Assembly (NCBI GenBank): GCA_963726745.1
Contig: CAVSDR010000006.1
Location: 32,001 to 96,000 of the forward strand
From: an uncultured Verrucomicrobiae bacterium
Lineage (GTDB): Bacteria > Verrucomicrobiota > Verrucomicrobiia > Chthoniobacterales > UBA10450
DNA: 64,000 nt
Direction: 5' to 3'
In this document: positions 45,864-49,783 of the stretch, piece by piece
Layout of the letters: each line of letters opens with the position of its first letter
Position numbering within the stretch: the stretch's first letter is position 1
Translations under genes and position numbers: made by a program
The notes under the pieces: generated by a model
Databases searched by the model: none
Seen by the model: the letters and a program-made list of their open reading frames with translations, nothing else
What the model was told of the DNA's origin: nothing

Positions 45864-46745
45864 CTAACGAAGGCTGTCGATCAGGAGCTGGTTGTTGCGC
45901 ATTGCGCTTTCGTCCGGCTCCGGCTGGGCCTTCAGGATCTCATTCGACTTCTCAGCGGCGGCGATCGCTTCCGATTTCTTCCCGAGCTTGGCCAGGATCT
46001 GCGCCTTCTTGGTGAACATATAGTAGGCCTTCGGGTTCATCTCGGTGGCTTTGTCGACCCATTTGGCCGCCTGCTCGAGGTCCTTGTTCTGCTCGAAGTA
46101 AAAGCTGCCGGCGTTGTAGTAAAAGCCGGCGTCCTGTTCTTTCCCGCCCTGGATCGTCTTTTCGATCGCCTGGGAGACCTGCGCAGTCGTGTTCGTGGTC
46201 AACTTGATCGGCACATGCGTCTTGTCCCACTCGAGGAACAAAGTCGCCGTGTCGCTCTTGAGGTTCTCGAAGCCGATGGTGAAACTTTCGGTCACGTCCG
46301 GCACGGTCGCCGGTTTGACCGTGAAGCGCACCAGGTCGGCGTCTGGCTTGTAACCGTAGGCGCCCCAGAGCTTGGTATTCTTCGAGATGATGACCGTCCA
46401 CTCGTTAGCCGTCGGGATGGTATAGACAGCATACTCGCCCGCGGGAATTTCCTTGCCCTCGAGCTGGACGGCATCGCTGACCTTCAGCTTCGTGGGGTCG
46501 TTTGCGCCAGTGCGCCAGACTTTCTCCCAGGGCACGAGGCCACCGAAGATCTCGCGGTTGTTTTTGTTTGGCCGCGAATAATCGATCTCGACGTCGGTCA
46601 GGCCGACGCGTTGCTTGACCACGGCGTGCTGGCTCGCCTGCGGGAACTTGACCTTCTCCTCCTGCGCGGAAACGGCGAGGGCGGTGAGCGTGAGGGTGCA
46701 GACCGCGAGCGCGGCCGATCGGGGGATGAACGATACATAGGACAT
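45864..46745 (-). CDS. DUF2911 domain protein with C-terminal TPR-like helices
   Basis: Signal peptide; PQASQ, YSRP, GGLVPW..VWRTGAN, AGEY..YTIP. Confidence 0.88.
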   Translation of the reverse strand: MSYVSFIPRSAALAVCTLTLTALAVSAQEEKVKFPQASQHAVVKQRVGLTDVEIDYSRPNKNNREIFGGLVPWEKVWRTGANDPTKLKVSDAVQLEGKEIPAGEYAVYTIPTANEWTVIISKNTKLWGAYGYKPDADLVRFTVKPATVPDVTESFTIGFENLKSDTATLFLEWDKTHVPIKLTTNTTAQVSQAIEKTIQGGKEQDAGFYYNAGSFYFEQNKDLEQAAKWVDKATEMNPKAYYMFTKKAQILAKLGKKSEAIAAAEKSNEILKAQPEPDESAMRNNQLLIDSLR

Positions 46746-46791
46746 CTGCCAAGATACGATGCCCGGATGCGAGTCAAAGACTGCTTCGCCC

Positions 46792-46863
46792 TGTCCCCGG
46801 CGGGAATCGAACCCACATCAAAGGTTTAGGAAACCTCCGTTCTATCCGTTGAACTACGGGGAC
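46792..46863 (-). tRNA. tRNA-Arg (anticodon CCT); CCA not encoded
   Basis: GTCCCCG acceptor stem, D-arm, GAGGT-TTCCTAA-ACCTT anticodon arm, GGTTCGATTCC T-arm. Confidence 0.95.
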
Positions 46864-47073
46864 GCAGGAGAGCCTGCGGATTGTCGGCGGCGACCGCTGG
46901 ATTTGCAATGGGCGCGCGGCATGGCGGGCGGGCGAAGAAAGGCTTGCCCGGCGGGGGTTGGCTCGCGCACTCTTCGCGGCGCCGGTGGCGAAAGTGTGGC
47001 CGCCGGCGCCTGATGTTTCCCCCGAGAGTCATGAGCGGCGCACGAAAAGTGCGATCGCGGGCAAAGAAACGCG

Positions 47074-47112
47074 TCGACAACGACGCCGGCACTTTATATG
47101 TTCACCTGAACA
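47074..47112 (+). promoter_or_regulatory. Sigma70-like promoter overlapped by a Verrucomicrobia-type LexA box (TGTTC-N4-GAACA)
   Basis: TCGACA (47074-47079)-N17-TATGTT (47097-47102); TGTTC-ACCT-GAACA at 47099-47112, ending on the A of the ATG. Confidence 0.75.
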
Positions 47113-47207
47113 TGAAGACTCTCGCGCGCCGCCTCCTCGCCTTGCTTCGCCGCCCCTTTGTCCCTCGCCCCGCTCAACTCGAGCTCCCCCTATGGCCGAA
47201 CAAATAG
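47112..47207 (+). CDS. 31-aa micropeptide with a putative beta-clamp-binding motif (QLELPL)
   Basis: MKTLARRLLALLRRPFVPRPAQLELPLWPNK; ATG directly behind the promoter/LexA box. Confidence 0.6.
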   Translation: MKTLARRLLALLRRPFVPRPAQLELPLWPNK

Positions 47208-47407
47208 AAAGCCTCCGCTCCGTCCTCAAGCGCATCCGCGACGACGCCCAGGAGGCGCTCGCGATGCTCGCAGCGAGCGGCCCGGCCCGCTCGCTGGCCT
47301 GGCGCTGCGTGCAATGCGGGAGCGTGAAGCACTTCACCCGACCGGCGGTAAAAGAGGTCGCGCCGCCCTGCCCGAAATGTCGCGGGGCGGAGTTTGCTCC
47401 GCACTGA
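47192..47407 (+). CDS. 71-aa zinc-ribbon protein
   Basis: N-terminal helix, then WRCVQCG...CPKCRG (two CxxC pairs); overlaps the micropeptide ORF. Confidence 0.7.
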   Translation: MAEQIESLRSVLKRIRDDAQEALAMLAASGPARSLAWRCVQCGSVKHFTRPAVKEVAPPCPKCRGAEFAPH

Positions 47408-47427
47408 AGTTGCTGGCTAAATGACGA

Positions 47428-47460
47428 ACGCGCCGTCCCGGTCAATCCAGGACGGCGCGT
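47428..47460. terminator. Hairpin between convergent genes, possibly a bidirectional terminator
   Basis: ACGCGCCGTCC (47428-47438)/GGACGGCGCGT (47450-47460); U-tracts weak. Confidence 0.55.
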
Positions 47461-47498
47461 CACCTTTATAGCCTGCTCCTGGTCGATCAGCCCGCTGG

Positions 47499-49783
47499 CT
47501 AAAACTCGACCGACATGCCGGCGTAGCCGCTCCGGCCGGCCGCGGGATCGATGCTGCCGCCGCCGAACGGGAAGATGCGCGAGTAGTATTTCTTGTCCGC
47601 CAGGTTTGAGATGCCGCCGATCAAACGGACGTTGCGCGTCAGGTAGACTTCGCCGGAGAGGTTGAAGACTTCATACGACGGGATGGAAGCCGGCGGAATG
47701 CTGGCGCTGCCGATGTTCGAGTCGGCCCAGTATTGATCCGACACGTAGACGCCGCTGAAAGTGAGATTGAAGCACTTGTCCCGCTTGAAGGTGATCCCGC
47801 CCTTGAAGACAACGTCCGGCGCATAGGCCGGGGTGTTGCCGACAAAGCTGCGGGTCGTTCCGGGCACGAGCTGCGCGCTGTCGGTGAACTCCGCGTCGAG
47901 GATCTGGAGGTTGCTGAAGACGATCAACTGCAGCGGTCGCGGCGCGGGCAGCGGGGTGCGCACATTCTTGCCATCCTTCGCCTCTTGCGGCTCTGGCTCC
48001 GGCAGGAGCTCGCGCTGGAAGGAAGCCAGGAGATCGTAGGAAACTTCGCCCTCGAAACCGCGATGCCGCGTGGTCCCGGTGTTGACCGCGATGGTGTCGA
48101 ACGGTCCGCCGCCGGGCGCCGCGCGGGTCTCGATGCGGTTATCGAATTCCATCCAGAACAGGCCGACGTCATACCAGAAGCCCTTGATCGGCGTGCCGTG
48201 CACCCCGAGCTCGATGTCGAGCGAGCGGAACGGATCAGGCGTTTCGCCCGGCAGGATCGCGGTGCGCGTGCCTGCGATGTCGAAGAAGCGCACCGGGCGC
48301 CAGCCGGAGGAGGCGCTGAAGTAGGTCTCGTTATTGCCAGCAAAATCATTCCCCAGGCCAATGCCCCAAAGCGGGATCAGCTTGTCGGCACTCCGATTCG
48401 GCTCCGTGCCCGGCCGGAAATAGGGCGCGACATTGGCGTCGACTTCGACGCTCTCGTGATCGAGGCGGAACGACGGCACGATGTGGAATTTCCCGATGCG
48501 GATCAGGTCCTCGACGAAGAACGCTTGGTAATCAGCGGTGCGCTCCTGGTCGAGCGCGACCGTTGCCGACGTCGTCCCGCGCGAGGCGTAGAGGAAGCCG
48601 GGGCCGGTGTTGGCGTTGTTCAAGGTGTAGCGCTGGAAAGGCGCGTCGCCGTGATAGAGCGTGCCGCCAAAGGTAAGCGCGCTGCCGCGGAAAGTGCCGT
48701 CGCCGCCCCAACGTTTGCGTACGCGCAGGTCGACGCCGCCGTTGTTGAACTCCTCATAGCCGAAGGTCGTGCTCGTGGGAAACGCGCCCGTTACCGCGTT
48801 CACGTTGGCGCCAGCGCGCGCATCGATGTCCTGGTGGGTATACCAGGCTTTCGCCTGGACCAGCCAATCGGGCCCGAACTCGCCTTCGTAACGGAGGACG
48901 ACGTTATAGCGATCGACCCAATTGTGATTGTAAGGCGTGACCGCCTGGTCGGAATTGGCGACAAATTGCGCGTAGCTCAAGCGGCCCGGATCTTCGCCAT
49001 CGAAACGGGAAGCATGCGCATCGACCGCGACCAGCTGGCCGGGGGCAAAGCGCCAGCCGAGGTAACCGTTCGCCTGCCAAAGGTCATACTTGTTGTGGTC
49101 GCGCTGCCCTTCCGAGGTGCCGTAGTAACCGTCGAGCCGCATCTCCAGCGGGCCGGAAGCTTCCTGCACCGAGGCGAAGCTGGAGTAGGTGCCATTGGGT
49201 CCGCCGGTTTGCTCCACATACGCGCTCCAGGGCGTGCCGGGAGCCGGGCGCTTGCTCACGTAATTCACCGAAGGCGCAGGCTCTGGCCCGTAGAGCAGGC
49301 TGCTGCCGCCGCGGACGATTTGGATTTCGCTCACGCTCTGCGGGACGGGCAAATAGTAGAGCGTGGGAAACCCGATCCAGTCGCTCATCAGCGGGATGCC
49401 ATCGTGCAGGAAGAGGGTGTACTCAGACTCCTGTGGATTCCCGAGGCCGCGGTAGCTGAAGTTGTATTGCGCGGGGTTTTGCTGCTCGCTCACGATCAAG
49501 CCGGGGGCCTTGGTGTAGAGCTCCTGGAGGTTGTTGTTCTCCACCGGCGGCTGGCGGTCGAGTTTGATCACGCTGGCCTTCTTTGTGACCGTGATCTGCG
49601 TGCCGGCGACCTCGCGCATGATGTGCGCCAGCTTCGGCCGCGCGTCGTCCGGCGAAGGCGTGGGACTGGCCAGGGCCTCGCCGCGGACTTCGATCGGTTG
49701 CACGACTGCTTCCTGCGCTTTGAGCGAAGGATGCAGGACCGGACCGCGGCCAGCAGAGTGATAATGAAGGAAGTGCGTTTCAT
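47499..49783 (-). CDS. TonB-dependent outer-membrane receptor (FecA-like); apparent frameshift near 49730 after the signal peptide
   Basis: Plug motifs (YRG, DGIP, IVRGGSSLLYGP..SVNY), SNLADKKY, C-terminal VEF; signal peptide MKRTSFIITLLAA in another frame. Confidence 0.88.

Follow-up and report, generated by a model that had tools for sequence, protein, structure and literature searches.

The checkpoints described for the bacterial SOS response are mainly inhibitors of division; examples of control at the level of the sliding clamp come from polymerases, the proteins that manage them and a handful of toxin–antitoxin toxins. TisB, DinQ, SosA and DidA are hydrophobic membrane peptides or division inhibitors, and we know of no clamp motif in any of them. 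In eukaryotes, the clamp ligands p21 and p15PAF/PCLAF, which are small and mostly disordered with basic flanks, govern which proteins reach the sliding clamp when DNA is damaged. Caulobacter SocB, from the SocAB system, is folded, and SocA-dependent proteolysis controls it. Through a clamp-binding motif it occupies the hydrophobic pocket of the clamp and blocks elongation (PMC9690074, PMC12795458). The chromosomally encoded RipA of the Rosmer-type pneumococcal RipAB pair acts at the DnaN pocket and causes replication stress (PMC12795458). A study of clamp-binding motifs (CBMs) further describes growth inhibition of E. coli by an expressed 9-residue CBM peptide, and an effect of the p21 flank at the sliding clamp (PMC11139829).

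The locus described here lies in a window of 64,000 nucleotides, the whole stretch of DNA analysed, and consists of a LexA-type box, a 31-residue reading frame (ORF1) and an overlapping second gene (ORF2), together referred to below as the cassette. ORF1 and SocB have a target pocket in common, reached through a clamp-binding motif and, on the ORF1 side, modelled; but SocB is the toxin of a toxin–antitoxin pair and triggers SOS without being SOS-induced itself, whereas ORF1 has about 31 residues, is LexA-boxed and can occur without a partner. RipA would likewise share the DnaN pocket, but it belongs to a toxin–antitoxin pair in a species without SOS, and the comparison made here is one of target. 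The hexameric motifs of Hda and Pol IV follow the same Q-aliphatic-x-L-x-L/F pattern and use the pocket modelled for ORF1 (PMC11139829); there the motif tethers an enzyme, whereas ORF1 is almost only a motif, with basic instead of acidic flanks. Damage-induced micro-proteins such as TisB, DinQ, SosA and DidA are easily missed in annotation, as is ORF1, but the transmembrane helix of TisB and DinQ has no equivalent in ORF1, which lacks a transmembrane stretch, has an Arg content of about 24% family-wide and carries a net charge of +4 to +9 in its first 18 residues. An Rfam search at gathering score, which a novel antisense RNA could escape, matched nothing but tRNA. The resemblance to p21 and p15PAF/PCLAF, non-homologous proteins of the PCNA/PIP-box system, is a functional analogy only. 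By analogy, then, ORF1 would be SocB/RipA-like in target, TisB/DinQ-like in size and regulation and p21/p15PAF-like in design; we file it in none of these groups because intact ORF1 occurs at 13 loci as a stand-alone gene, where an antitoxin would always be kept with its toxin, and because it does not have the transmembrane segment of type I SOS toxins. The literature searched, a coverage outside which most subscription papers fall, yielded no LexA-controlled stand-alone clamp-motif peptide and no account of this cassette.

Organization of the locus and its place in the SOS regulon

The only promoter-like site in positions 46700–47600 is TCGACA-N17-TATGTT (0.1 expected from shuffles). Its -35 element, TCGACA (47074–47079, plus strand), is matched in homologues by hexamers of the TTGMCN/TRGACA type that follow the ATG when it moves, the distance from the end of the -35 element to the ATG being 29–34 nt in most homologous loci. 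The -10 element, TATGTT (47097–47102, plus strand), is a consensus match only, is overlapped by the operator, and is non-canonical in other cassette subtypes. The operator, TGTTC-N4-GAACA (TGTTCACCTGAACA; 47099–47112, strand-neutral), lies in an extended palindrome at 47098–47113. The ATG falls at box position 7, 13 or 15 depending on the subtype, and six loci without an ATG at position 13 have one in frame at position 7. A -35 element that keeps pace with the ATG across subtypes points to an mRNA that is leaderless or nearly so, as had been proposed from the single sequence.

ORF1 (47112–47207, plus strand) encodes 31 residues arranged as a predicted basic amphipathic helix (residues 2–12), a linker, the clamp motif and a short basic tail; the hexamer QLELPL comprises residues 22–27 (47175–47192, plus strand). 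ORF2 (47192–47407, plus strand; 71 residues) overlaps ORF1 by 16 nt and has a long N-terminal helix (residues 2–28) followed by a C4 zinc ribbon of the form CxxC-x17-CxxC. The promoter pair, the palindrome, ORF1 and an overlapping ORF2 with two CxxC pairs are all located as a preliminary description had given them. A strong GC hairpin (47428–47460, strand-neutral; z -4.6 for 47400–47475) lies between ORF2 and a convergent TonB-dependent receptor gene; a T-run scan made no terminator call there, and the hairpin is probably a terminator shared by the two genes. The 5' region of the operon is no more structured than shuffled sequences, and a terminator-like minus-strand hairpin at 47071–47086 overlaps the -35 element, the count of such hairpins being within chance. 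The divergent upstream neighbour is a tRNA-Arg(CCT) gene (46792–46863, minus strand). Counting this locus, only 7 of 59 have a tRNA gene at a distance of up to about 1.5 kb, and we rejected integration at tRNA sites as a rule on that basis; the tRNA gene is no conserved part of the cassette.

The Verrucomicrobia LexA motif was reportedly described by Erill et al. in 2016, and TGTTC-N4-GAACA is said to be that motif. The host encodes a LexA (TIGR00498 match above cut-off). Only two perfect copies of the motif are present in the genome, this box and one before an imuA-like gene that sits directly behind lexA. Counts by themselves show no excess over chance: with one mismatch allowed, the window holds one box against 1.08 expected, and N4 spacing, with two sites genome-wide, is not enriched over other spacings (0–4 sites each). 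The significance of the box therefore rests on the positions of the sites and their conservation rather than on frequency. With an operator matrix built from the relatives' cassette promoters alone, the window's own locus being left out, this box ranks first (26.9 bits), ahead of the sites of imuA (26.3), a PA0069-family radical SAM gene (22.7), lexA (21.9) and a TIGR03916 radical SAM–UdgX operon (19.0); the sixth site (18.4 bits) precedes a 653-codon gene that overlaps the imuB C-terminal half, in an operon ending in dnaE2. These six are all the sites of at least 18 bits in the genome, where shuffled genomes hold 1, 1 and 3; with the threshold lowered, matrix sites show no excess over shuffled genomes, and recA is absent from the top 30. 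Two relatives without the cassette have a matching motif before lexA, imuA-like and radical-SAM-like genes. One source places a uracil-DNA-glycosylase system of Verrucomicrobia under SOS control (PMC8565304). The genomic position of the sites supports the box as the host LexA operator and, with a motif shared with lexA, imuA and other SOS loci, the LexA control put forward in the preliminary description holds up: the ORF1 operon is almost certainly LexA-regulated.

Several members of this regulon, or other users of the clamp, have clamp-type motifs of their own, including DnaE1 (QVSLF), DinB (QLALL), the PA0069-family (QLALL) and TIGR03916 (QLDLF) proteins, and the ImuB C-terminal half (QFSLF). 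The motifs of the two LexA-boxed radical-SAM proteins (L288 and L289; G000:C6 near 545074 and C3 near 508533) are C-terminal, suggesting that these enzymes work on the clamp. imuB is in two parts: its N-terminal IMS domain is encoded after imuA (G000:C6, about 883093–883695, plus strand; L291), and the C-terminal half, with a motif of the QFSLF type, is found some 10 kb off on the opposite strand, directly before dnaE2 (G000:C6 873050–873970, minus strand), either as a conserved trait or as an assembly effect. ORF1 as a stand-in for an absent ImuB motif was considered and rejected, the separately encoded half having its own. The gene overlapping that half (G000:C6:873967–875928, minus strand; L290; relatives' loci L354 and L359) encodes an unannotated 653-residue repeat protein with a hydrophobic N-terminal stretch and has a LexA-type box; an NCBIfam search gave no match, a homologue in G083 (34% identity) is also boxed, G076 has a similar-looking gene, and we regard the protein as a candidate new SOS component. 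A boxed, unannotated ORF of 88–89 residues, helix-turn-helix-like by eye, is alike in two genera (L355, G083:C14 near 352032; L361, G076:C2 near 812144). Both recA (G000:C6:172004–173114), which lacks a high-scoring box, and dnaE2 (869829–873050) contain an apparent frameshift, possibly a sequencing indel.

The ORF1 micro-gene and its clamp-binding motif

Seventy ORF2 loci were fetched, and the 67 with upstream sequence (three had none) were assessed. A box is present upstream in 56 (one, at L034, apparently spurious) and in none of the same-sized downstream control windows. In the frame of the ATG at the box, 43 of the 56 boxed loci encode the strict hexamer Q[LMIV]x[LM]x[FL], against a background of about 0.3% per 31 residues, and 49 do so if F is allowed at position 4; the remaining seven are two ORF1 deletions, an apparent frameshift, three loci without an in-frame ATG, and the spurious L034. 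The combination of box, short ORF and hexamer, for which a search in relatives had been proposed, is thus conserved. A metagenome scan for one cassette subtype left the frame free, and its tallies refer to the 120 matches listed: the spacer is a multiple of three in 114 of these (eight lengths) and open in 113, and ORF2 is in the overlap frame in 104. Over 59 distinct 60-nt ORF1 spacers dN/dS is 0.34 with no stops, compared with stops in 11–49 sequences in each of the five other frames. Kin are non-independent in all homologue counts given here, and one locus from each of two unpublished genomes, G030 and G182, is included in the tallies and in alignments A1–A4, with no claim depending on either. 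The in-frame spacers and the low dN/dS identify ORF1 as a genuine coding micro-gene, as first suggested, and show purifying selection at the codon level; its translation is very probable.

Searches with ORF1 gave no match above 0.76 in the ESM Atlas and, as a profile, none among PDB sequences; diverged ORF1-like peptides were not seen at 20 regions, a subset of the box-like sites, in three near-complete cassette-free genomes. One ORF1 subtype has a conserved basic C-terminal extension past the motif (HVKASRR-like) and a gap before ORF2 (L033, L035, L039, L041, L043–L049 and L052).

QLELPL matches the hexameric clamp-binding consensus Q-phi-x-[LM]-x-[FL] given in PMC11139829. Among 63 distinct ORF1 peptides, a set chosen by the motif itself, position 1 is Q, position 2 L or M, and positions 4 and 6 L or F, so that the invariant pattern is Q-[LM]-x-[LF]-x-[LF], in 15 hexamer variants; F occupies position 4 in eight. 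Position 5 is N in 35 and P in 25, and the QL[SP]LPL type named initially is therefore too narrow, although a clamp-type hexamer it remains. The motif codons vary synonymously among homologues, and the motif is retained where ORF2 starts some 55–160 nt later or is absent.

Modelled alone, ORF1 forms a helix over residues 2–12 (mean pLDDT 74.5) and is otherwise coil, which would leave the motif in an unfolded, accessible segment. In a model of three chains (host DnaN, ORF2 and ORF1), ORF1 residues 19–29 lie on DnaN residues 171–176, 241–246, 276–279, 317–319, 343–345 and 357–364, contacts that largely coincide with the published pocket residues (PMC11139829). The DnaN–ORF1 pair scores 0.65, compared with 0.00 for the best of three controls, a pass that may reflect memory of solved clamp–peptide complexes; of 157 solved pairs 116 attain the score mark, as do 2 of 215 mismatched ones, and the mark is a rough guide for this job, with its own alignments and three chains. 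Contact agreement between runs is at least 76%, and partner pLDDT at least 64. By its fit to the published consensus and its modelled placement in the pocket, the clamp-binding assignment is supported, and ORF1 is likely to bind DnaN.

The flanks are unusual. Bacterial CBMs tend to have mostly acidic flanks (PMC11139829), because the pocket rim is basic, but the ORF1 motif departs from this tendency, with means of 3.3 basic and 0.4 acidic residues over ten flanking positions; such basic flanks could weaken binding to the pocket. As a separate observation, DnaN of G326, G336, G346 and G355, all members of a single genus in the class, gives a two-part alignment with an in-frame insertion of about 20–25 residues near position 225.

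ORF2 and the distribution of the cassette

In the ORF2 model (pLDDT 86.8), a helix of 27 residues precedes a C4 zinc ribbon. Nothing in Pfam or NCBIfam matches it at curated cut-offs; the best sub-threshold scores, in bits against cut-off, are DUF7130 (19.3/35), FmdB/Zn_ribbon_8 (18.3/34.4) and DUF1451 (19.5/26.1), all to the ribbon only, and other members match zinc-ribbon families with E-values, the only measure given, of 3e-6 at best. Foldseek found no match at E<=0.001, and the best full-length VIA alignment has Z 3.3 and rmsd 9.7 over 66 residues. The family comprises at least 236 database proteins, the few taxonomic labels all reading Chthoniobacterales; ORF2 matches 233 cluster representatives, and its ESM Atlas matches are hypothetical Verrucomicrobiota clusters only. 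By these comparisons ORF2 is a novel family of helix plus zinc ribbon. In the three-chain model no ORF2 residue lies in a confident interface, and the control with DnaN replaced scored 0.00, an outcome that speaks neither for nor against contact between ORF1 and ORF2. ORF2 may be a small binding protein, induced together with ORF1, whose helix mediates its assembly, a reading that we hold with low confidence.

ORF2 was found in 10 of 60 relatives, all in the same Chthoniobacterales family, and in 74 of 300 genomes of that family, some as fragments, many of the genomes being incomplete. The box-plus-motif pattern occurs in 65 of 300 family genomes, or in 66 of 301 in the tally where the reversed control gave one, about six of the matches listed being unlike ORF1. 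Farther afield, 400 genomes of the phylum gave only seven weak, partial ORF2 matches (E 6e-6 to 8e-4), and 135 genomes of the order from outside the family gave two pattern matches, one due to chance and one a full cassette (G766, L299) that is possibly mis-binned or transferred. Cassette-carrying relatives are labelled Chthoniobacterales/Verrucomicrobiota, in agreement with the verrucomicrobial host initially assumed. A match in Bryobacter (L022) was rejected as chance. A viral origin was also rejected: 31 pattern matches in IMG/VR look like chance and none has ORF2, tblastn of ORF2 against 50,697 phage and 72,556 plasmid records gave no match, and PHROGs and PADLOC gave weak matches only, for at most 6 of 79 ORF2 members. 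Within the family the cassette is accessory rather than a core checkpoint, since it is patchy, has 26 flanking contexts among 52 loci, and is decayed, duplicated or broken in some of them.

Thirteen genomes of genus g44 carry the box, the ATG and an intact ORF1 followed by a different gene in the place of ORF2, either converging and transporter-like or 2-oxoacid oxidoreductase-like (named by eye). A TTGA-type -35 element is present at 12 of these 13 loci, the other being cut upstream by a contig end. Ten of the genomes (77–97% complete) were searched whole and contain no credible ORF2, the best match having E 0.003 and a stop; G279 has broken ORF2 pieces elsewhere in the genome. Conversely, L050 and L066 retain the box and ORF2 with ORF1 deleted, and in further loci ORF2 is truncated behind ORF1. 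Because these 13 genomes carry box and ORF1 with no ORF2 behind, a role of ORF2 as a needed partner or antidote is not supported: it is a dispensable passenger of the operon.

Proposed role and alternative explanations

We lean towards ORF1 being an SOS-induced, stand-alone ligand of the β sliding clamp that competes at the pocket. Regulon membership suggests that LexA, bound over the -10 region, transcription start and ATG, would keep the operon off, and that upon DNA damage a leaderless or nearly leaderless mRNA would yield a peptide of 30–51 residues, its coding nature being read from conservation. The hexamer would then fill the protein-binding pocket of the clamp, as modelled. Having no catalytic domain, ORF1 could only compete with or gate the users of that pocket, among them Pol III, DinB, the ImuB/DnaE2 mutasome and the two motif-bearing radical-SAM repair enzymes, and replication might be slowed or re-routed while damage lasts. 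The Arg-rich amphipathic N-terminus would most likely raise the concentration of ORF1 on DNA-loaded clamps, and ORF2 would be co-induced as a dispensable zinc-ribbon protein. That the peptide acts as a soluble or DNA-assisted competitor is a reading we prefer by a little.

The properties of the N-terminal helix bear on a different possibility, in which it would be a membrane-targeting sequence and, following damage, tether clamps or DNA loaded with clamps to the inner membrane, causing sequestration or a block of division over unrepaired DNA. The pooled hydrophobic moment of 60 N-termini peaks at 100 degrees with a value of 0.65 (mean 0.38 and maximum 0.44 in 500 shuffles), over the first 13 residues the moment has a median of 0.59 and exceeds 0.5 in 43 of 63 peptides, and the distance from Met to the motif Q is 19–21 in 54 of 63. 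A face of L, F and W with basic flanks resembles targeting helices of the MinD/Noc type, and the regulon also includes a conserved gene, upstream of imuB-C/dnaE2, whose product has a hydrophobic N-terminal stretch. Taken singly, only 10 of 49 sequences are amphipathic at p<=0.05 (p 0.098 for ORF1 of the window). In several subtypes a high Arg content goes with a small moment (minimum 0.12), a combination more in keeping with nucleic-acid binding, and the lipid-binding discriminant applied responds to charge and cannot tell membrane binding from DNA binding; we consider a membrane tether unlikely.

The hexamer might also have nothing to do with the clamp, ORF1 being a leader for translational coupling, its DNA the ribosome-binding site of ORF2, or the peptide a ligand of another SOS protein. 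The motif codons often hold GGAG about 9 nt before the ORF2 ATG, which the last Leu codon overlaps, and the flanks are atypically basic for a clamp ligand. Nevertheless, the motif is not the ribosome-binding site of ORF2, because it is kept where ORF2 starts late and with GGAG-free codons, and it persists where ORF2 is absent; substitutions are confined to L, M and F at exactly the clamp-contacting positions, and other host SOS proteins end in similar motifs (QLALL, QLDLF). This group of explanations is quite improbable.

A toxin–antitoxin pair similar to SocAB or RipAB, with ORF1 as a clamp-blocking toxin and ORF2 as its antidote, would account for two small, usually overlapping genes (the overlap frame prevails among the metagenome matches listed), and for a patchy distribution, variable context, and duplicate and broken copies; against the stand-alone ORF1 loci of g44, the truncated copies of ORF2 behind ORF1, the retention of ORF2 without ORF1 at L050 and L066, and control by LexA in place of control by the pair itself, we judge it highly improbable. 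Least probable is that ORF1, or a frameshifted ORF1–ORF2 product, brings ORF2 to the clamp so that the zinc ribbon acts on DNA, for although gene order is conserved and motif and ORF2 share one frame in P0134, P0141, P0182 and P0253, among the longer of 150 listed representatives, these four fused database proteins come without their surroundings and could be indel errors, only 3 of 113 overlaps contain a slippery heptamer, in many loci a stop and a variable-frame gap separate the genes, and ORF1 stands alone in one clade.

Returning to ORF1 as a competing clamp ligand, the cassette represents a real, conserved and apparently undescribed family of SOS micro-genes with a well-supported predicted target. 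With 31 residues, the peptide can be tested by synthesis and expression, though its hosts are known here only from metagenome assemblies, and the naturally selected series of clamp-pocket peptides, with 15 hexamer variants and basic flanks, informs the use of the clamp as an antibacterial target. Searches that combine an operator, a short ORF and a linear motif can reveal regulators that gene callers miss. We suggest tentatively, and short of an even expectation, that ORF1 is the first dedicated, LexA-controlled minimal regulator of a bacterial clamp, p21/p15PAF-like in that a clamp motif is joined to a basic amphipathic helix that keeps the peptide on DNA or ties loaded clamps to the membrane, and that it provides a reversible replication checkpoint or gating of mutagenic polymerases during SOS in soil Verrucomicrobia. 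A gene consisting of little besides a LexA-controlled clamp motif would fill a gap among the known types of regulator. ORF1 probably acts, while DNA is damaged, as a brake on replication of a kind not described before.
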